This document shows, in pieces, positions 5,047-42,441 of a DNA stretch of 60,000 nucleotides. Every line of letters starts with the position of its first letter. Positions within the stretch are counted from its first letter, which is position 1. Location of the stretch: assembly GCA_965235115.1 (NCBI GenBank), contig OZ249436.1, positions 26,476,001-26,536,000 of the forward strand, read 5' to 3'. The stretch is from Laetmonice hystrix (Eukaryota). The notes beneath the pieces were generated by a model. The model was not told the origin of the DNA. It saw only the letters and a program-made list of their open reading frames with translations, and did no database searches. The position numbers and the translations under genes were made by a program.

Positions 5047-5622
5047 CATTCGGGATTCTCTCGGGCATATGACGTCACTTCCTGCTATTCGAATATACCC
5101 TCGGGTGAATTAGTGGCCATGTTGGCAACCAGATACATAGCCGAATGGAGCTGTGTAGTGAGTGGGTGAACCGTCATATCCCATCGAGCCAGGAAGTAGT
5201 GCATTACTGAATCCTGCTCCTTGGCATCGTATACATGTGCAAATATAAATTTCTGGTATGAAGGGGAACGTTTGAAGAAGAAAGATTAATCACCTAATTT
5301 ACCTAAATCGGCGCGTGATATGGAAATTTATCAAATTATAAGAAGCAATATGCCCGCGCCCATGAACGACAACAACACGACACATGGTAGGACTACTTGT
5401 ATCATGAACATGATTCTATCGCATTATTGCCCACTGGCTATGGGAAGGGCACTAGAGGCCTATTTTAGTTGCTTCCATGCCTGATGCAGACAAAATACGT
5501 GTACTACAAGCACTGCCGTGATTTCCAGAGTCCCGGCTCGAAGTACCCGCGATGCAATGCTCAAAATGGCGCTCAATTCACCTGAGGCTACTTTCGAAGA
5601 TATGGCCGAGGATTCCCGATTG
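5047..5622. mobile_element. Mutator-like MITE, copy 1
   Basis: ~24-bp imperfect TIRs CATTCGGGATT... / ...GATTCCCGATTG. 10-bp TSD GGGCGTGCAT / GGGCGTGCGT. Alignable over its full length with 21476-22033. Confidence 0.85.
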
Positions 5623-16097: not shown

Positions 16098-16637
16098 CTA
16101 CTTAATATCATCGTCATCTTTCTCAATGATACCAATTTTCTCCCCGACCCATTTGAATTTTGCGACTATCTCTTCTTGAATGAGCGAGAAGCACATGGAA
16201 ATAATGGCCATTCCAAAGAGCATATAGACGGCCGAAAGAATCATTTTGTACTGGTCCGTAGCATTTTCGAAGTTAGCTGCTCCCGGCACGACGTCGCCGA
16301 AGCCAATGGTTGAGATTGTCACGAAACAGAAGTAGGAGGCTTGCAGTGGCTGCCAGTTCTCCCACACCCCAAACAACAACGCTCCCATGAAGATGTAGAA
16401 GCCAATGATGGCCATTGTGATTGTAAGCGGCACGCTGATTCGTTCGTCTTCGTCTTCGTCATCGTCTTCGTCGTCGTTGAGAACGACTGGCCCGCCCTCT
16501 GTGGGCGGGAGGCCACCCTTCTGCTCGGCGTAGTCCGACTTCCAGGCCTCGGGTGTGGTGCGGCCCTTGGCTTCGTCCGAGTTGATAGATTCCACTTTGT
16601 TCTTATCTTTCCTCCGACAACATCCACAACAGCAGAC
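16098..16637 (-). CDS. K2P channel coding exon 3 (M2-M3 loop, M3, P2, M4, C-terminus)
   Basis: Acceptor TTATCTTGGATAG|GTC, then VCCCGCCRRK...ERISVPLTITMAIIGFYIFMGALLFGVWENW...SYFCFVTISTIGFGDVVPG...YMLFGMAIISMCFSLIQEEIVAKFKW...DIK-TAG. The spliced CDS is 1287 nt (~428 aa if started at the CUG). Confidence 0.97.
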   Translation of the reverse strand, partial: VCCCGCCRRKDKNKVESINSDEAKGRTTPEAWKSDYAEQKGGLPPTEGGPVVLNDDEDDDEDEDERISVPLTITMAIIGFYIFMGALLFGVWENWQPLQASYFCFVTISTIGFGDVVPGAANFENATDQYKMILSAVYMLFGMAIISMCFSLIQEEIVAKFKWVGEKIGIIEKDDDDIK

Positions 16638-24614: not shown

Positions 24615-24787
24615 CACTAGTGATTAGGACCCTATGTGTACCACATGACTGTAGTGATTCGGAACCTATATACCCCTCCTGCCTGTAGTGATTAGGAACC
24701 TATACGCCACCCGCCTGTAGTGATTAGGACCCTGTATACGCCACCTGACTGTAGTGATTAGGAGCCTGCATACGCCACCTGCCTGTA
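24615..24787. repeat. 33-35-bp minisatellite (continues at 25994-26026, 26351-26442 and ~32531-32565)
   Basis: Unit approx. GTGATTAGGACCCTATATACCCCACCTGACTGTA. Confidence 0.9.
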
Positions 24788-25992
24788 TTTTTCTTTTGAA
24801 ATGCACGGGCATCAGGGGTAACCCAATTACTTTGACAATGTCCCTAAAGAGAAAAGTTGTATAGTCCTCTACAGGAATCGAACCCAGGCCCTAAGATTAC
24901 TGCACCCATTCGCATAGCATAAGGTGTCGACATCCATGCCCACTAGGCCACCGCCACTCCCCTAAAAAAAGGAGCTTTGGTGGTCAAGCAGGACAATGGA
25001 CCCTCCCCCCTACACACATCTTTTTGAAATGAGACGGAATCCATATTTTTCCTAGTTAGAGCTACACATGATTTCTACCGAACATTGACTGTTAAGGTAA
25101 TCCTGGCACTGGCGTAGACTGTATTTTTCTTTTGAAATGCACGGGCATCAGGGGTAACCCAATTACTTTGACAATGTCCCTAAAGAGAAAAGTTGTATAG
25201 TCCTCTACAGGAATCGAACCCAGGCCCTAAGATTACTGCACCCATTCGCATAGCATAAGGTGTCGACATCCATGCCCACTAGGCCACCGCCACTCCCCTA
25301 AAAAAAGGAGCTTTGGTGGTCAAGCAGGACAATGGACCCTCCCCCCTACACACATCTTTTTGAAATGAGACGGAATCCATATTTTTCCTAGTTAGAGCTA
25401 CACATGATTTCTACCGAACATTGACTGTTAAGGTAATCCTGGCACTGGCGTAGACTGTATTTTTCTTTTGAAATGCACGGGCATCAGGGGTAACCCAATT
25501 ACTTTGACAATGTCCCTAAAGAGAAAAGTTGTATAGTCCTCTACAGGAATCGAACCCAGGCCCTAAGATTACTGCACCCATTCGCATAGCATAAGGTGTC
25601 GACATCCATGCCCACTAGGCCACCGCCACTCCCCTAAAAAAAGGAGCTTTGGTGGTCAAGCAGGACAATGGACCCTCCCCCCTACACACATCTTTTTGAA
25701 ATGAGACGGAATCCATATTTTTCCTAGTTAGAGCTACACATGATTTCTACCGAACATTGACTGTTAAGGTAATCCTGGCACTGGCGTAGACTGTATTTTT
25801 CTTTTGAAATGCACGGGCATCAGGGGTAACCCAATTACTTTGACAATGTCCCTAAAGAGAAAAGTTGTATAGTCCTCTACAGGAATCGAACCCAGGCCCT
25901 AAGATTACTGCACCCATTCGCATAGCATAAGGTGTCGACATCCATGCCCACTAGGCCACCGCCACTCCCCTAAAAAAAGGAGCTTTGGTGGT
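24788..25992 (-). mobile_element. Tandem array (3.6 x 336 bp) of a tRNA-headed SINE-like unit, subtype 1, insertion A
   Basis: Near-identical units start at 24783, 25119, 25455 and 25791. Each has a minus-strand A box TGGCCTAGTGG and B box GGTTCGATTCC. Confidence 0.85.
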
Positions 25993-26026
25993 TGTGATTA
26001 GGTCCCTATATACCCACCTGACTGTA

Positions 26027-26350
26027 TTTTTATTTTGAAATGCACGGGCATCAGGGGTAACCCAATTACTTTGACAATGTCCCTAAAGAGAAAAGTTGTA
26101 TAGTCCTCTACAGGAATCGAACCCAGGCCCTAAGATTACTGCACCCATTCGCATAGCATAAGGTGTCGACATCCATGCCCACTAGGCCACCGCCACTCCC
26201 CTAATAAAGGAGCTTTGGTGGTCGAGCAGGACAATGGACCCTCCCCCCTACACACATCTTTTTTTTGAAATGAGACGGAATCCATATTTTCCTAGTTAGA
26301 GCTACACATGATTTCTACCGAACATTGACTGTTAAGGTAATCCTGGCACT
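26027..26350 (-). mobile_element. Single near-full unit of the tRNA-headed element, insertion B
   Basis: Same sequence, flanked by minisatellite CTGTA | GTGATTAGG. Confidence 0.85.
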
Positions 26351-26582
26351 GTGATTAGGACCTTATGTACCCCACCTGCCTGTAGTGAATAGGTCCCTAT
26401 ATACAAATGTAGTGATTAGGAACTATACCCCACCTGCTTGTATTTTTCTTTTGAAGTGCACGGGCATCAGGCGTAACCCAATTACTTTGACAATGTCCCT
26501 AAAGAGGGTCTAGATGAATCTCTAAAGGGTGCTAGGACACTTAAAGCATTCAAGCACAATCTTAGGAAATCTCTTATTAGTA

Positions 26583-29500
26583 GACATGCTAAGAGCTCAA
26601 AAAGGGGTGAACACTGCATTTTATAGTGCAAATGTTTAACTTGGCATGATTGATCCTTAGGGCAAAAGGAAACAAAATATCCAAAGAGACAAGTTGTCTC
26701 TATGCATAGAGGCCCCTAATTTGAATAAATTATGCTAATTAGCACCCGACGGAAGTTGATTTCTAACTTTTGAACCAATTCACTTAGAAATACGTGTGAT
26801 AGGTGGATTTTAACTAATTTGGGGGTCAGAAATCCATCTGCAGGGTTATTTTGACATTTGGCGGCCATTTTCACCCTCAAATCCAAGATGGTCGCCAGCA
26901 ACCATCTGAAATCTAGCCTAAAGGTACTTCATAATTTAAACTAATTGAGGACATACTTGTGTTATGCATGGATTTTCATTTGTGGGGGTTGGGAAACTCA
27001 TTTCTGTCATTTCTTTGCAATAAGAGTCCATGTTGAAGGTAAAATCCAAGATGGCTGCTCTTGGGTTAGCCTATAGGGCCTATTAGAAAACATGATTGGC
27101 CTAGGCCTATATCAAACGCATGAAAATTGAATATAGTCCGGCAGCCAAAGGGCTGAACCTGGAAATGTGGTATAACTTTTATTTTTTGATGGATTTAAGG
27201 TGCCAAGGTCGTCCTGAGTGAGAATCCGCCTGATGCCAGCTTGGCACCCTTGAGCATTTTTTATAATTTGCATAAATCCAATATGGCCGCCATCTTACCC
27301 ATGGCGATCCACTTTTGGCATTATCTCCACCCGTAAATTGACTTTTTTCATTATATAATATTTTTCCTAGGAGGTTCTGGGACAGAGGAATCGGTTACAA
27401 GAAAAAAAAGAATGATTGACCGCGCCCTCATTTGCATAAATTAAATATGGCCGCCATCTTAACACGAATTTGAGCTATTCTGGCTATATCTCAACGTCAA
27501 AATGGAATATTACTCTTTATAAAGTACTGTTCAGGGGATAAATGACGTACACAATCTTTTTGCAGTGATACATATTCGAATTGGTCCACCCCTCATTTGC
27601 ATAAATCCAATATGGCCGCCATCTTACCCATGGCGATTCACTTTTGGCATTATCTCCAACTGTAAATTGACTTTTTTCATTATGTAAATTATTTTTTAGG
27701 AGGTTCTTGGAATCGGTTACTAGAAGAAAAAGAGTGATTGGCTCGCTCCCTCATTTGCATAAATTAAATATAGCCGCCATGTTGGCCAGAACTCTGGCTA
27801 TTCTGGCTAAATCTTCAGTGAGTTTACTCTTTAAAAAAGCTCATTTGCAATATGTAGTCTATTTCTTGTGGCAAGAAAGTGAAGTGGCGAGCAATCTATG
27901 TTGATATTGTTACCAATGAGGGCTCCCTTAGCCTACATGTTTTGACTGAACTTAGACTGAAACAAACACTAGAGTGAGGGCTCCCCACAGGTATTGACTG
28001 CCCTTGGGCTGGAGCAAACACTACAGTGAGGGCTGCCTCTATGTATTGACTGCCCTTCGGCTGGAGCAAGCAGTACAGTGAACGCTCCCTACATGTATTG
28101 AGTGGCGTCATACTCGAGCAAACACTACTCTACATGGATTGACTGAGTTTAGACTGGAGCAAACACTAGAGTGATGGCTCCCTACATGTATTGACTGCGC
28201 TTGGGCTGGAGCAAACGCTACAGTGAGGACTCCCTACATGTATTGACTGGCCTTATACTCGAGCAAACACTACAGTGAGGGCTCCCAACTGTCTGGCCTT
28301 TTGCGCTCACTGTTAGTCTTTGCTCGAGTATAAGGCCAGTCAGTACATGTGGTGACCCCTCACTGTAGTGTTTGTACGAGTATAAGCCCAGACGGTACAT
28401 GTTGGGAGCCCTCACTGTAGTGTTTGCTCCAGGCCTAGGGCAGTCAATACATGTAGGGAGCCCTCACTGTAGTGTTTGCTCCAGTCTAAGGCCAGCCAAT
28501 ACATGTAGAGAACCCTCACTCTAGTATTTGCTAGAGTATAAGGTCAGTCAGTCGATGTGGTGACCTTTCACTGTAGTGTTTGCTCGAGTATAAGGCCAGA
28601 CGGTCCATGTTGGGAGCCCACACTGTAGTGTTTGTTCGAGTATGACGCCACTCACTACATGTAGTGAACCCTCACTGTACGGTTTGCTGCAGCCCATGGC
28701 CAGTCATTACATGGAGGGAACCCTCCCTGTAGTGTTTGCTCGAGTATAAGGCCAGTCAGTACATGTTGTGACCCCTCATTGTAGTGTTTGCTCGATTATA
28801 AGGTGCCCTCACTTTAGTGTTTGCTTCAGTCTAACCTCAGTCAAAACATGTAGGGAGCCCTCACTGTACTGTTTTCCCCAGCGCTAAGCCAGTCTTTATA
28901 TGGAGGGAGCTCTCACTGTAGTGTTTGCTCCAGCCTAAGACCAGCCAATACATGTAGAGAACCCTCACTGCACATGTAGTGTTTGCTTCAGTCTAAGCTC
29001 AGTCAATCCATGTACAGAGCCCTCACTGTACTGTTTGCTCGAGTGTAAGGCCAGACGGTACATGTTGGGAGCTCTCACTGTACTGTTTGCTCCAGTCTAA
29101 GGCCAGCCAATACATGTAGAGAGCCCTCACTGTAGTATTTGCTTCGGTCTAAGCTCAGTCAATCCATCTACAGAGCCCTCACTGTAGTGTTTGCTCGAGT
29201 ATAGGGCCAGACAGTCCATGTTGGGGGCCCTCACTGTAGTGTTTGCTCGAGTATAAGGCCAGACAGTCCATGTTGGGGGCCCTGACTGTAGTGTTTGCTC
29301 GAGTATGACGCCGCTCACTACATGTAGTGAACCCTCACTGTATGGTTTGCTGCAGCCAATGGCCAGTCATTACATGGAGGGAACCGTCCCTGTAGTGTTT
29401 GCTCGAGTATAAGATCAGTCAGTGGATGTGGTGAGCCCTCACTGTAGTGTTTGCTCGAGTATAAGGCCAGGCAGTACATGTTGGGAGCCCTCACTGTAGT

Positions 29501-30512
29501 GTTTGTTTCAGTCTAAGCTCAGTCAAAACATGTAGGGAGCCCTCACTGGCAACAATATCAACAGAGATTGCTTACCACTTCACTTTCTTGCCACAAGAAA
29601 TAGACTACATATTGCAAATGAGCTTTTTTAATGAGTAAAACTCATTTTGACGTGAAGATATAGGCAGAATAGCTCGAGTTCTGGCTAACATGGCGCTATA
29701 TTTAATTTATGCAAATGCGGGAGCGAGCCAATCACTCTTCTTCTTCTAGGAACCGATTCCCAGAACTTCCTAAAAATAATTTACATAATGAAAAAAGTCA
29801 ATTTGCAGTTGGAGATAATGCCAAAAGTGACTTACAATGGGTAAGATGGCGGCCATATTGGATTTATGCAAATGAGGGGTGGACCAATTAGAATATGTGT
29901 CACTGCAAAAAGATTGTGTACGTCATTTATCTCCTGAACAGTACTTTATAAGGAGTAAAATTCCATTTTGACGTTGAGATATAGCCAGAATAGCTCAAAT
30001 TCGTGTTAAGATGGCGGCCATATTTAAGTTATGCAAATGAGGGCGCGACCAATCACTCTCTTTTTTCTTGTACCTTGTCCCAGAACCTCCTAAGAAAAAA
30101 ATTATACACTGAAAAAAGTCAATTTACGGGTGGAGATAATGCCAAAAGTGAATCGCCATGGGTAAGAACCATGTACATGTACCGTAAGCTAGATTTCAGA
30201 TGGTTGCTGGAGGCCATCTTGGATTTGAGGGTCAAAATGGCCGCCAAATGTCAAAATAACCCTGCAGATGGATTTCTGACCCCCAAATTAGTTGAAATCC
30301 ACCTATCACACGTATTTCTAAGTGAATTGGTTCAAAAGTTAGAAATCTACTTCCGTCGGGTGCTAATTAACATAATTTATGCAAATTATGGGCCTCTATG
30401 CATAGAGACAACTTGTCTCTTTGGATATTTTTTTTCCTTTTGCCCTAAGGACTAATCATGCCAACTTAGACATTTGCACTATAAAATGCAGTGTTCACCA
30501 CCTTACCATGTC
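26583..30512. mobile_element. Foldback-like non-autonomous DNA transposon, 3930 bp, near-complete palindrome, TA TSD
   Basis: TA|GACATG ... CATGTC|TA. 26606-26917 is the inverse of 30188-30499, and ~27293-27980 is the inverse of ~29490-30167. The central 52-bp minisatellite flips orientation at ~28300. Confidence 0.9.
27915..29548. repeat. 52-bp minisatellite, ~7 units in one orientation then >20 units inverted
   Basis: Unit approx. CTCACTGTAGTGTTTGCTCGAGTATAAGGCCAGTCAGTACATGTAGGGAGCC, with CTCACT at 28411, 28463 and 28515. Confidence 0.92.
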
Positions 30513-31875
30513 TACATATGGCAAACTATTGATTGATATGTGATCAAGCTTCAACAAAATGTATGTACCTAATATATCTGACTGTATGTAACTACGTATT
30601 CGTGGCACAACTGACATCTCTTTATCTTATACGGAAAAGGATGTTATCTAATTAAGACATACAAGCTAACTGCGACACAACTGCTGTCTTTTACTCTACT
30701 TATGTAGTTTCTGGGTACTCATTACTGTATTGGGGTTTCTGTGTGTATGGAGGTCACAGACAGTTATGTCTCTAATGCGTACCCCCTGAAAGCATCACTG
30801 TGTAATATATTATATACCTGCATGTGTATTGCATCTCGGAGATATTGTATGCTTCCAGGAAATAAAACTATCTATCTATCTATCTAAAAAGGAAGCTTTG
30901 GTGGTCGAGCAGGACAATGGACCCTCCCCCCAACACACATCTTCCGAGATGAGACGGAATCCATATTTTCCTAGATAGAGCTACCCATGATTTCTATCGA
31001 ACATTGACTGTTAAGGTCATCCTGGCACTGGCGTAGACTGTATTTTTCCTTTGAAATGCACGGGCATCAGGCGTAACCCAATTACTTTGACAATGTCTCT
31101 AAAGAGAAAAGTTGTATAGTCCTCTACAGGAATTGAACCCCGGCCGCAAGATTACTGCACCCATTCACATAGCATAAGGTATCGACGCCCATGCCCACTC
31201 GGCCACCGCCACTTCGCTAAAAAGGAAGCTTTGGTGGTCGAGCAGGATAATGGACCCTCCCCCCTACACACATCTTCCGAGATGAGACGGAATCCATATT
31301 TTCCTAGATAGAGCTACCCATGGTTTCTACCGAACATTGACTGTTAAGGTCATCCTGGCACTGGCGTAGACTGTATTTTTCTTTTGAAATGCACGGGCAT
31401 CAGGCGTAACCCAATTACTTTGACAATGTCCCTAAAGAGAAAAGTTGTATAGTCCTCTACAGGAATTGAACCCCGGCCGCAAGATTACTGCACCCATTCA
31501 CATAGCATAAGGTATCGACGCCCATGCCCACTCGGCCACCGCCACTTCGCTAAAAAGGAAGCTTTGGTGGTCGAGCAGGATAATGGACCCTCCCCCCTAC
31601 ACACATCTTCCGAGATGAGACGGAATCCATATTTTCCTAGATAGAGCTACCCATGGTTTCTACCGAACATTGACTGTTAAGGTCATCCTGGCACTGGCGT
31701 AGACTGTATTTTTCTTTTGAAATGCACGGGCATCAGGCGTAACCCAATTACTTTGACAATGTCCCTAAAGAGAAAAGTTGTATAGTCCTCTACAGGAATC
31801 GAACCCCAGCCCCAAGATTACTGCACCCATTCGCATAGCATAAGGTATCGACGCCCATGCCCACTCGGCCTAGGG

Positions 31876-32527: not shown

Positions 32528-32763
32528 TAAATATACCCCACCTGACTGTAGCGATTAGGAACCTAATCCCGATGGGGCGGGGCCGGACATGCCAATTTGA
32601 TTAATTTATCGACAACATGGTGGAAAATCCCTTACCGGGCGCGTAAAGTAACAGGGATTCGTCGCAATACCCGTTGACTAATGAAATGATTGCTCAAAAC
32701 TTTTATTTATAAGGAGAAATATCGACTGGAGAATTATAGACTATAGGCCTCGGCCCCTACACT

Positions 32764-34309: not shown

Positions 34310-34838
34310 CACATAACTTCATGGGTGTGTGCACCCACACAGCGTGTGCACGTACCGCCTCACCTCCGTATCTAAAGTATTTTTATCAACAGATCCTGCT
34401 ACGGATTCTACAATAGCACTCGTGTGTCCGTCCACGGTCGACAATACAACACACTTCATGGGTGGGGGTGCCCTCGCACAACGTGTGCACGTAGGTACCG
34501 CCTCACCTCCGTATCTAAAGTACCAACAGATCCTGCCACGGATTATACAGCTCGTATGTCCGTCCACGGTCGACAATACAACACACTTCATGGGTGTGTG
34601 CACTCACACAGCGTGTGCACGCACCGCCTCACCTCCGTATCTAAAGTACCAACAGATCCTGCCACGGATTATACAGCACTCGTGTGTCCGTCCACGGTCC
34701 ACAATACAACACACTTCATGGGTGTGTGCACTCACACAGCGTGTGCACGCACCGCCTCACCTCCGTATCTAAAGTACCAACAGATCCTGCCACGGATTAT
34801 ACAGCACTCGTGTGTCCGTCCACGGTCCACAATACAAA
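34310..34838. repeat. ~128-135-bp tandem repeat (4 copies)
   Basis: ACTTCATGGGTG recurs at ~34316, 34453, 34585 and 34713. Confidence 0.92.
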
Positions 34839-35427: not shown

Positions 35428-36317
35428 TAGGTCTGACCTATCGGCCGAGCAACCCGTTGACCGATCCACCGATGGGTCTGACTTATCGGCCGAGCAACCC
35501 GTTGGCCGATCCACCGATGGGTCTGACATATCGGCCGATGAGCAACCCGTTGACCGATCCACCAGTGGGTCTGACCTATCGGCCGAGCAACCCGTTGACC
35601 GATCCACCGATAGGTCTGACCTATCGGCCGAGGAACCCGTTGGCCGATCCACCGATGGGTCTGACATATCGGCCGATGAGCAACCCGTTGACCGATCCAC
35701 CAGTGGGTCTGACCTATCGGCCGATGAGCAACCCGTTGGCCGATCCACCGATAGGTCTGACCTATTGGCCGAGCAACCCGTTGACCGATCCACCGGTGGG
35801 TCTGACCTATCGGCCGAGGAACTCGTTGGCCGATCCACCGATAGGTCTGACCTATCGGCCGATGAGCAACCCGTTGACCGATCCACCGATGGGTCTGACC
35901 TATCGGCCGAGGAACCCGTTGGCCGATCCACTGATATGTCAGACCTATCGGCCGAGCAACCCGTTGACCGATCCACCGATGGGTCTGACCTATCGGCCGA
36001 AGAACCCGTTGGCCGATCTACCGAGAGGTCTAACCTATCGGCCGAGTAACCCGTTGACCGATCCACCGGTGGGTCTGACCTATCGGCCGATGAGCAACCC
36101 GTTGACCGATCCACCGATGGGTCTGACCTATCGGCCGAGGAACCCGTTGGCCGATCCACCGATGGGTCTGACCTATCGGCCGAGGAACCCGTTGGCCGAT
36201 CCACTGATATGTCTGACCTATCGGCCGAGCAACCCGTTGACCGATCCACCGATGGGTCTGACCTATCGGCCGAAGAACCCGTTGGCCGATCTACCGAGAG
36301 GTCTAACCTATCGGCCG
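35428..36317. repeat. GC-rich 45/48-bp minisatellite (~19 copies)
   Basis: Unit GGTCTGACCTATCGGCCGA(TGA)GCAACCCGTTGACCGATCCACCGATG. Confidence 0.96.
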
Positions 36318-40289: not shown

Positions 40290-41401
40290 GAGGCGGGGAA
40301 ATCCCACTTATCTCGACGTCATACCTGTCGGAAATATTCTAACATCCTGACTGCTCCATTGAAATTACCTACTCCTGACAGTGGAATATTGGACTAACTA
40401 ATATTCTAACATCCTGACTGCTCCATTGAAATTACCTACTCCTGACAGTGGAATATTGGACTAACTAATATTCTAACATCCTGACTGCTCCATTGAAATT
40501 ACCTACTCCTGACAGTGGAATATTGGACTAACTAATATTCTAACATCCTGCCTGCTCCATTGAAATTACCTACTCCTGACAGTGGAATATTGGACTAACT
40601 AATATTCTAACATCCTGACTGACTGCTCCATTGAAATTACTTACTCCTGACAGTGGAATATTGGACTAACTAATATTCTAACATCCTGACTGCTCCATTG
40701 AAATTACCTACTCCTGACAGTGGAATATTGGACTAACTAATATTCTAACATCCTGCCTGCTCCATTGAAATTACCTACTCCTGACAGTGGAATATTGGAC
40801 TAACTAATATTCTAACATCCTGCCTGCTCCATTGAAATTACCTACTCCTGACAGTGGAATATTGGACTAACTAATATTCTAACATCCTGACTGACTGCTC
40901 CATTGAAATTACCTACTCCTGACAGTGGAATATTGGACTAAATAATATTCTAACATCCTGACTGACTGCTCCATTGAAATTACTTACTCCTGACAGTGGA
41001 ATATTGGACTAACTAATATTCTAACATCCTGCCTGCTCCATTGAAATTACCTACTCCTGACAGTGGAAAATTGGACTAACTAATATTCTAAGATCCTGCC
41101 TGCTCCATTGAAATTACCTACTCCTGACAGTGGAATATTGGACTAACTAATATTCTAACATCCTGACTGCTCCATTGAAATTACTTACTCCTGACAGTGG
41201 AATATTGGACTAACTAATATTCTAACATCCTGACTGCTCCATTGAAATTACCTACTCCTGACAGTGGAATATTGGACTAACTAATATTCTAACATCCTGA
41301 CTGACTGCTCCATTGAAATTACCTACTCCTGACAGTGGAATATTGGACTTAGAAAATGTCGCCCAGGTATGACGCCGAGGTCAGTTGGATTTCCTCGTCT
41401 G
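40290..41401. mobile_element. TIR element filled by a 67/71-bp minisatellite (~15 copies, 40333-41349)
   Basis: Imperfect ~38-bp inverted ends (GGAAATCCCACTTATCTCGACGTCATACCTG / CAGGTATGACGCCGAGGTCAGTTGGATTTCC). Unit AATATTCTAACATCCTGACTGCTCCATTGAAATTACCTACTCCTGACAGTGGAATATTGGACTAACT. Confidence 0.85.
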
Positions 41402-41723
41402 TTCTAAATTATATCATGGAACCTTATAAAATTCGAACTGAGAGAAAAATGCATAAGAATGAGCCAGAAATGACCAGGTAGGGTGCATTACCCTCTAATA
41501 AATGCACTCGTTGTGGATGGTATGATGCATTTTTTACTCGGCTTGTGATAAAAATAAATAAAACTTTCTTCAAAGATAAAAAAAAAAGCTGTGAGCCCCC
41601 ATCAATCAATGATTTGTTGTGTAATTATTCCATGCGAGTTTGAGTCAGTTAGCTTAACGGTCTGACAATTTGTTTCTATCATAATGAAACCAGCCTTACA
41701 GTGGAACGGGAAAGGAGACTCAC

Positions 41724-42327
41724 CAATAGTTGTAATCACGGTGACTGAGAAGAGCAGGGCCCCGGCAAATGACCACCGATATCCAGGGCCGTTGGGCTCA
41801 CCCATAATGCTACAATTCTTGCCATCATATCCGAGATCCAGAACAATTCCGCGATACTTCCGAAGGAGTTTCGTTGTCTCCGTCATGAAAAATTCCTTTG
41901 TATCTTCGTCCAGCCCCAGGTTTGTTACCACCTCCCACATTTTGTGTGTTGTCTCATTTTCCGCTGGGTTGTATTTTTCTTCCGCGAGAATACACTCTTG
42001 TTTCTCGTTGGTTTGTTCTAGATGTCTGAATATAAAACCACCAGCTACAGCATATGCTATAACCATACCACTAAGGCCGATGTGTGAAAAGATAAATTTC
42101 AAAGCCCTTTTGCAGCAGTTTCGATTGGAACTGCGTTTTTCATCTCCGGTCGGGTCGGCGACGTCGCATTCCGCGTCGCGACTATCGCGATCAATGCGGT
42201 CTTCCCCTCGTCCAGTTTGGCGTTCCTTTTCATCTTCGGAGGATGATATATCCCGTGGATTCTCCGGATCTGTTGTCGCATTCTTCCGAAAGCGAGTGAC
42301 CGAGGCAGTATCTTCCTTTGGATCCAG
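41724..42327 (-). CDS. K2P (two-pore-domain) potassium channel, TWK-7/KCNK18-like, coding exon 1 (N-terminus, M1, cap, P1 up to TTI-G); start placed at the putative CUG 42327
   Basis: The frame reads ...NCCKRALKFIFSHIGLSGMVIAYAVAGGFIFRHLE...YDG...WSFAGALLFSVTVITTIG and ends at a phase-1 donor G|GTGAGT (41724/41723). It is open upstream to TAG 42351-42349. The 5' boundary is uncertain because there is no in-frame ATG. Confidence 0.93.
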
Positions 42328-42441
42328 GGTGACAACGTGATTCTCTAACTACTTATACTGCTACACAGCGACCAGTCAGATTCATCCACCTTGAGGGTCC
42401 ACAGTCTGCAACTCTCTGAAATTAAAGGGTAAAAAAGAGGG
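42328..42441 (-). promoter_or_regulatory. Strong splice acceptor (42416/42415) and 5'UTR part of the first coding exon, containing a 10-codon uORF (42385-42353)
   Basis: CCCTCTTTTTTACCCTTTAATTTCAG|AGAG. There are four stops in the channel frame between 42415 and 42349. The uORF reads ATG AAT CTG ACT GGT CGC TGT GTA GCA GTA TAA. Confidence 0.7.

Follow-up and report, generated by a model that had tools for sequence, protein, structure and literature searches.

A tRNA-headed retroposon of Laetmonice hystrix appears to borrow the enzyme of a Penelope-like element

The reverse transcriptase (RT) of Penelope-like elements (PLEs) is the sister group of telomerase. For animal retrozymes without long terminal repeats (non-LTR retrozymes), circles have been shown (passages of PMC7229834) and a PLE origin has been argued (bioRxiv 10.64898/2026.07.22.740005). 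Passages of other papers describe MRC1, a non-autonomous head-to-tail PLE partner (PMC8557442), short non-autonomous Penelope elements in butterflies (PMC6685494), and the Anolis Poseidon PLE PAc, on which initiation in vitro is internal and lies in a stem-loop near the tandem junction (PMC11167929). Our subject is a 336-bp unit that recurs in a 60,000-nucleotide stretch of Laetmonice hystrix DNA, called the window below (positions 26476001-26536000 of contig C1, OZ249436.1, in an assembly of 627 Mb). Unit positions are numbered q1-q336, with q1 at window position 24788, and the RNA sense is the minus strand.

Copies of the 336-bp unit form a young family spread through the whole genome, real beyond chance. 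Overall, it is probably best explained as a non-autonomous retroposon that carries a tRNA-derived promoter for RNA polymerase III (Pol III) and is mobilized by a PLE of the same genome. The PLE enzyme appears to be borrowed by a short tRNA-like short interspersed element (SINE), by means of a small module in its RNA with a loop that resembles the target, as telomerase RNA resembles the ends of chromosomes. The initial annotation of this locus had proposed a Pol III-driven retroposon primed by base-pairing to its target, and that main interpretation is supported.

The fixed end and the candidate Penelope-like partner

A pattern for the fixed end, applied outside internal unit-unit junctions, has 2,171 matches in the genome and none in the reversed control; it leaves out sites with C at -11, and the resulting sample is biased towards C1. 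Internal unit-unit junctions number at least 2,513. A DNA search with the full unit listed 150 of 219 matches, nearly all 99% identical and spread over many contigs; it scored 40 of 336 candidates and its sample leans towards multimers. Ends were tabulated from 120 fetched loci plus the window, a set in which some copies have been multiplied inside other repeats. Among 155 unique left ends, 138 lie at q1, three at q2-q3 and 14 elsewhere. The bases before the q1-q3 ends, from -4 to -1, are T in 128, G in 125, T in 134 and A in 128 of 141 cases. Far ends, by comparison, occupy every 20-nt bin of the unit. The initial annotation had looked to genomic copies for multimers, for a common fixed end with TACAG next to it and for staggering at the other end, and all of these are found. 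Neither of the contrary outcomes it named, a unit present at a single locus or random breakpoints on both sides, was observed: the family is genome-wide and one end is fixed. The autonomous PLE with the same segment that it had asked for is also present in the genome.

Removal of five likely duplicates from 146 complete insertions left 141. The 34-bp minisatellite seen in the window holds 82 of them, a 52-bp/870-bp satellite 12 and other sequence the remaining 47. In this last group, outside satellites, the last four bases are TGTA in 44-47 of 47 insertions per position. The right flank opens with GTG in 28 of 146 insertions, and the site is therefore CTGTA^GTG. Junctions are mostly blunt or carry small deletions. 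Left-flank duplications occur at a few far ends (15 nt at L043, 30 nt at L119, and 24 nt plus added bases at L069), and others are confounded by the tandem flank.

Two side observations concern the minisatellite. Together with several SINE pieces, it recurs with identical truncation points at distant loci (L075/L118 and L046/L102), which suggests that it perhaps travels in another mobile element. In a long tandem array with 1-4 kb spacing (G000:C5:31183548-31452327), the end of the minisatellite runs on into a different, constant sequence.

A search of the genome for the GIY-YIG domain gave 126 matches, most of them from one young family with a 759-codon frame in arrays with a period of ~5.58 kb. 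The frame encodes an RT followed by a C-terminal GIY-YIG domain (RVT_1 E 7e-10, GIY-YIG E 7e-8), and 1,547 relatives were found at E <= 1e-50 among 8,000 scored. The linker ahead of its endonuclease, CGKRGCECC, fits the CX2-5CxxC of Neptune and Nematis, and the cysteines do not vary among 25 aligned proteins. One unit of this family measures 5,575 bp and contains a TATA at 689, an 837-codon frame and then the RT frame. A hammerhead core can be read by eye at unit positions 736-767 (CTGAAGA, GGCAG/CTGCC, GAAA, TCGA, TA), where Rfam gave no match. Endonuclease-bearing PLEs have been described as having one open reading frame (ORF); here the additional upstream frame carries NADAR and SGNH-like domains. 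The family forms tandem insertions with 5′ truncation and head-to-tail arrays. All copies examined end ...CAAATAAAA and vary at their 5′ ends, with two ending near the predicted start (719) and cleavage site (776).

The same junction behavior is seen at the 3′ ends of this PLE. Of 109 such ends counted, 100 were listed, comprising 37 internal junctions and 63 target joins, the latter merged by hand to 46. Among these ends, TACAG opens 38 of the 46 merged joins (28 TACAGTG, 6 TACAGTC, 3 TACAGTA and 1 TACAGCG), and the sequence at the TACAGTC joins is mostly that of the 34-bp minisatellite. Aligned with the PLE junction, the minus strand of the SINE scores 90, against 27.7 +/- 5.0 for shuffles (maximum 53 of 1,000) and 39.5 for the opposite strand. 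This homology runs on both sides of the fixed junction, which argues that the fixed end is an internal start site and that priming is internal. The 5,575-bp PLE is likely the autonomous partner of the SINE, and target priming inside the RNA, driven by the PLE, is very probable on the evidence of these junctions.

Other candidates were considered. A telomere-attached PLE of 789 aa was rejected as the partner, since it lacks exact boxes of the shared module in the 754 nt after its ORF. When the partner was sought among other sequences inserted into the minisatellite, a C5 satellite, SINE variants and two rows starting TTT(A/C)T were all that emerged. The 789-aa PLE, with RT and GIY-YIG domains, lies near contig ends (L164 and L165, on C15 and C21) and its 3′ end joins (TAACCC)n; similar matches lie near the ends of C2, C5, C6, C12, C17 and C18. 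A NADAR-bearing upstream ORF occurs in both PLE families found in this genome (L172:6781-9291 on C7 and L165:605-3925). NADAR has been reported in Gypsy and Tx1 elements, and no report of it in PLEs was found in the passages of that source (PMC12477816). One of the main targets of the 5,575-bp PLE is a ~870-bp satellite of diverged short subrepeats (L152-L159).

The two-box module, its loop and the target

SINE and partner both carry a predicted stem in which two GCC(A/C)GUGC boxes flank a loop that holds the target sequence. On the minus strand of the window, the module in common with the PLE spans 25092..25160, with a stem at each end. Box 1 (GCCCGTGC, 25146-25139) is followed by an A-rich loop, the predicted priming site between 25124 and 25123, the target-matching TACAGTC (25123-25117), and then box 2 (GCCAGTGC, 25113-25106) and the stem.

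The module is conserved well beyond this genome. From metagenomes, a scan retained at least 77 related PLE loci, with 37-56% identity over their best segment. Among the loci listed, 16 of the 51 3′ regions that are distinct have GCC(A/C)GTGC within 250 nt past the ORF, versus 25 of 1,674 background windows (p 2e-15), and 26 of 77 loci hold two boxes around a loop of 26-60 nt, counting some near-duplicates and three loci admitted with one mismatch per box. The 14-nt flanks of the boxes pair at a mean of -10.1 kcal/mol versus -3.9 when swapped (permutation p 1e-5; 29 sequences, including the partner and both SINE subtypes). This result is unchanged for 11 distinct sequences, and L248 and L293 fit poorly. 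Toward its 3′ side, the loop resembles a telomere repeat (TAACCC) in about half of the two-box loci listed and CA or TACA repeats in L258/L259; the partner has TACAGTG there, and the SINE has TACAGTC. The target-matching stretch always lies directly 5′ of box 2. In two outside families (L243/245/251 and L240/246), a target-joined copy exits the loop within its last 0-3 nt and enters telomere repeats, (TAACCC)n. Separately, seven metagenome contigs of related PLEs (L221, L250, L258, L277, L282, L293 and L295) have the same sequence at both ends, as head-to-tail arrays or circles predict.

Within the genome, a two-box search gave 361 matches versus 189 for the control. It was swamped by unrelated tandem repeats and revealed older SINE subfamilies. 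These relatives (L328-L330) are 78-87% identical to the young unit and have the junction loops CACTCTCAC or TCACAATTA. A diagnostic older 3′ segment has 92 matches, all listed, which a hand count divides into 16 internal junctions and 76 target joins; three of the older-type internal junctions read ACAGTCTGAC, an intermediate. Of 68 older-type joins counted by hand, 45 lead into CAC with no more than one base in between, 3 lead into (T)ACAG and 20 into something else. Joins of the young family read CTGT(A) in 113 of 146 cases and GTG in 0 of 146. Loop and target therefore co-vary, and either of them may lead.

SINE and partner also differ at target position 7. The SINE favors C (828 vs 442 raw; 36 vs 28 clusters on C1), and the partner favors G (28 vs 6 among the partner ends listed). 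The contrast follows the loop of each element (p 2e-4), and it persists at 23 vs 6 (p 0.002) after merging six partner copies that resemble one carried insertion, four of which were checked. A separate loop-target contrast, 44:14 vs 6:28, was discarded because the pattern without C at -11 loses many sites in the 52-bp satellite. Taken with the loop comparisons, these sequences give a good chance that pairing between loop and primer helps to select the target.

Transcript, multimers and competing explanations

The tRNA-like head predicted from the window contains identifiable A and B boxes on the minus strand. They start 14 and 80 nt after q176, right behind a run of seven T (T7). In the first unit, the A box (TGGCCTAGTGG) lies at 24940..24950, beginning at RNA position 14 and recurring every 336 bp, and the B box (GGTTCGATTCC) lies at 24874..24884. 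The T7 run (24964..24970) is the predicted Pol III terminator, immediately upstream of the next start. A single predicted transcript, one unit long, would cover 24964..25299 on the minus strand, starting near q176 (25299), crossing the unit junction and ending at the T run (24970-24964). The T run has a length of 6 or 7 and is nearly always constant inside one array. Against host tRNA-Arg(TCG) and tRNA-Thr(AGT), among 10 distinct tRNA sequences, the subtype 1 head scores z 3.7-5.2 and the subtype 2 head 2.7-3.2.

The ends of insertions agree with this transcript. Far ends of monomers fall in q141-178 in 43 of 81 cases versus 6 in q179-216 (p 6e-8), and those of multimers in 7 of 60, matching a uniform expectation. 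The first 40 and last 45 nt of the predicted transcript pair at -36.7 kcal/mol, a value equaled by 12 of 1,000 shuffles and by 0 of 5,124 other pairs of segments; the end-to-end duplex of subtype 2 reaches -37.8 kcal/mol, with 8 of 1,000 shuffles as good. The whole unit folds no more stably than shuffles do (z 0.59, -0.12 and 1.17). As first noted from the sequence, the unit lacks a hammerhead core: CTGANGA is on neither strand, where only a CTGATGC within the stem comes near. The Rfam scan proposed at that time found no ribozyme in the unit, returning nothing but an 11-nt T-loop match, and it also missed the partner's hammerhead read by eye. The head, the T run and the monomer ends make it likely that Pol III produces the unit transcript.

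Units of one array can share private variants. A rare variant is present in every unit in 13 of 38 array records with at least three pieces, the young ones amounting to nine distinct arrays; 189C, for example, occurs in 18 of 18 units of L049. In the partner, too, neighboring units have every departure from the reference in common (6/6, 3/3 and 4/4, with none to compare in one further pair). L171 (G000:C20:10225113-10226241), at a TACAGTC site, is a five-unit array of a 207-bp partner-junction piece (unit 5438-5575 plus 1-69) that has neither ribozyme nor promoter and in which one variant alternates between units. Such sharing within arrays fits repeated copying of one template. A circle, a jump on the same molecule and read-through transcripts may each be a route to multimers, and we lean towards one template being read repeatedly. 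Contigs of 364 bp in runs X4 and X7 were rejected as evidence of circles, as each equals one unit plus overlap, which is expected of any tandem array.

These observations suggest the following course of events. Pol III would start near q176, read through the unit junction and stop at the next T run, giving an RNA of ~330 nt with paired ends. The PLE protein would load on the module, which by homology derives from the PLE's own junction. Judging from the junctions, GIY-YIG would nick CTGTA^GTG and the freed ...CTGTA-3′ would pair with UACAG(UC) in the loop, and reverse transcription would begin inside the RNA at the A run. Internal priming at a paired loop would thus account for the fixed end and the target preference. 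Copying that stopped at or just before the RNA 5′ end would give the common monomers of 141-178 nt. Copying round one template, either on an RNA circle or by switching at the 5′ end to the 3′ end that pairs with it on the same RNA, would give homogeneous multimers that end anywhere. Only copies longer than ~1.5 units hold a complete transcript, so multimers would be the source genes.

A number of points weigh against parts of this course of events. Neither ARAGORN nor the Rfam tRNA model calls the head, its A-B spacing is 66 nt versus 45 in the sampled tRNAs, and the comparison covers only 10 distinct host tRNA sequences. The start, end, strand and circularity of the RNA are predictions from DNA. 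Monomer ends pile up at q141-178, where the 5′ arm of the terminal stem also lies, and a stall on the first pass could produce this with no need of a linear 5′ end. If Pol III ends with differing numbers of U were joined, the T run should become shorter or differ in length, and it stays almost always at 6 or 7. Eight copies with an old background and the young ATTTC variant join five times at ACAG and three times at CAC. The loop could adapt to a site defined by the protein, and the true driver of the older subfamilies could be an older or unfound PLE family with another nuclease preference. The position-7 contrast is inflated by copies carried in other repeats, and this non-independence weakens the test. 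Finally, the 29-unit array L151 mixes at least three haplotypes, a mixture that a single monomer circle does not give; when haplotype phase was followed in L151, switches at q176/177 were not located.

Competing explanations draw on some of the same data. The target of the same PLE-dependent SINE might be set by the protein alone, through GIY-YIG and the zinc-finger linker, with the loop descending from an old insertion site or adapting. The right-side GTG (28 of 146 right flanks) cannot derive from the RNA, and the nuclease must therefore have a preference of its own. Moreover, the linker has been proposed to mediate the repeat bias of Neptune elements (passages of PMC8557442), and the Anolis PLE starts at a non-homologous site (passages of PMC11167929). 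Target choice by the protein alone is nevertheless rather unlikely, as the loop tracks the target across SINE subfamilies and distant families, always immediately 5′ of box 2, and as SINE and partner, which are expected to share the protein, differ at position 7 in the way their loops do, in a comparison that is confounded. The arrays raise a different issue. Retrotransposition might yield monomers or dimers, with long arrays built by read-through (Pol II or leaky Pol III) transcripts or later expansion at the DNA level, and with no circle or end jump. The mixed array L151 and the constant A run at q177-183 favor this, and the 2026 preprint prefers local amplification for retrozyme arrays (10.64898/2026.07.22.740005). 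We consider such a route possible if doubtful. Arrays on at least 15 contigs are 99% alike, yet several have a private variant in every unit, partial end units included, and their far ends fall at any phase. The 5.6-kb partner also shows the same within-array identity, and the 207-bp piece of L171, with neither ribozyme nor promoter, is multimerized as well.

The unit might instead be a DNA element of the rolling-circle kind (like Helitron, IS91 or Replitron), whose origin end is fixed, whose terminus varies and whose target is its own nick site. Blunt junctions, perfect multimers and far ends that vary opposite a fixed one are likewise expected from HUH rolling-circle transfer. Such an origin is very improbable here. 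The fixed end and both of its flanks are homologous to an RT and GIY-YIG element of identical junction behavior, which largely refutes it, with no search made for HUH proteins; the left-flank duplications at some far ends (L043, L119 and L069) and the monomer ends that stop at the predicted Pol III start also speak against it.

Returning to the PLE-mobilized SINE, a broader proposal has about an even chance of being right. A wide group of PLEs would have an undescribed module resembling telomerase RNA, with a covarying stem, two boxes that a dimeric protein may bind, and a loop in which the final 5-9 nt select the primer, be it a telomere, a microsatellite or a satellite site. A tRNA promoter would have captured this module to make the SINE, the hammerhead being replaced by a Pol III start and stop and the ends closed by the stem and rolled into multimers, and loop mutations would have retargeted it from CAC to TACAG. 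If true, the module is a natural RNA-programmable insertion signal and a living model of the telomerase RNA template region.

The window and comparison with known systems

The target array in the window is the 34-bp minisatellite at 24618..24787 (plus strand; found by TRF and in the sequence), with a CTGTA^GTG site in each unit. The initial annotation described three tracts of one 333-336-bp unit. This holds for tracts A and B, and tract C (26443-31870) proved to be two pieces split by 4.4 kb. Tract A (24788..25992, minus strand) contains 3.6 units of 336 bp, 100% identical, from the fixed, primed end at 24788 to a variable end at q197; the private variants 199A and an extra T at 259 are common to all its units. 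A single minisatellite unit (25993..26026, plus) separates it from tract B (26027..26350/51, minus), an insertion of its own that runs q1-q324. More minisatellite (26351..26442, plus) leads to the start of tract C (26443..26506, minus), 64 bp of the older subtype covering q1-q64. The annotation was right that all three tracts open at q1 directly after TGTA (GCCTGTA, GACTGTA and GCTTGTA), that A and B return to the minisatellite at (T)GTGATTAGG without duplication, and that two subtypes are present, A and B being 98-100% identical to the unit and C 92-95%.

The 4,379 bp that follow (26507..30885) are unrelated DNA and no part of the retroposon: an inverted-repeat element (~26602-30504), with the 52-bp satellite in opposed arrays, and then 380 bp ending in (TATC)n. 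Its inverted repeats (26602-26920 vs 30504-30185) are 95% identical. The rest of tract C (30886..31870, minus) is 985 bp of the older subtype, 92-95% identical, running from q179 to q162 across ~3 units. Tract C lacks q65-q178, and the minisatellite returns only near 32531, past 660 bp of another repeat; a final unit at 32531..32565 (plus) is likely the other flank of the array as it first stood. The tracts contain no ORF of 150 aa. Judged from two exon-like frames, the tracts sit in an intron of a two-pore potassium-channel-like gene. These frames, which have a GFG pore motif, lie at 16098-16637 and 41602-42348 (minus), with the whole finding in between. The inverted-repeat element is 3.9 kb long (26602-30504), with inverted repeats of ~320 bp and opposed 52-bp satellite arrays. 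Copies elsewhere (L182, L184, L186 and L190) hold one identical truncated PLE insertion, so the element multiplies nested inserts. The window has further tandem arrays at 34316-34837, 35430-36317 and 40333-41349, with periods of 128, 45 and 67 bp.

The SINE shares with non-LTR retrozymes its non-coding tandem units of a few hundred bases, its range from monomers to multimers, its relation to PLE termini and its presumed movement by PLEs (passages of PMC7229834; 10.64898/2026.07.22.740005). It differs from them in having no hammerhead core and, in its place, a tRNA-like head with A and B boxes and a T run; unit-length RNA would therefore be set by Pol III rather than by self-cleavage. Circles have been shown for retrozymes; for the SINE they would be one candidate route. 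Like tRNA-derived SINEs, it has an internal Pol III promoter in a tRNA-like head, a tail derived from its partner and thousands of copies, many of them 5′-truncated (PMC7245038 and PMC5786205, in part). Unlike them, it has a PLE and not a long interspersed element (LINE) as its likely partner, with no LINE-derived tail; priming would be internal, ~160 nt before the predicted RNA 3′ end and not at that end; and its monomers lack half of the recognition module. Lacking a hammerhead, and having a PLE partner and internal priming, the unit belongs to neither retrozymes nor SINEs as defined. No report of a tRNA-headed, PLE-mobilized SINE or of the two-box module was found in a literature search that reached few subscription papers or Repbase reports and no supplements.

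How PLEs recognize RNA, choose targets and build arrays is a standing question. This locus makes it directly testable: some 70 nt of module within an RNA of 330 nt give a minimal substrate, the intact enzyme that matches it is encoded in the same genome, and loop variants with different targets occur naturally. The SINE would extend SINE-type parasitism from LINEs to PLEs, offer a ribozyme-free route to retrozyme-like arrays and provide a way for dispersed 300-bp satellites to arise in one step. If the loop sets the target, it is also a short RNA handle with which to direct insertions.

Among PLE companions, MRC1 and other non-autonomous Chlamys elements are described with no mention of a Pol III head in passages of PMC8557442; the partner here, by contrast, has a C-terminal GIY-YIG domain and a CX4CxxC linker of the Neptune/Nematis type. 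As in PAc, reverse transcription would start within the RNA, judging here from junctions. PAc has two starts, not homologous to the cut DNA, and a 30-40-bp tail (passages of PMC11167929), whereas the SINE has one start and a loop that matches 5-7 target nt. The likeness extends to telomeric PLEs such as Athena and Coprina (passages of PMC8557442) and to telomerase RNA, in which an RNA stretch complementary to the primer adjoins the start; in many relatives here the loop is itself a telomere repeat. Unlike in those systems, the stretch lies between two conserved boxes in a covarying stem, is also present in endonuclease-bearing elements, and has non-telomeric versions too (TACAG, CAC and CA repeats).

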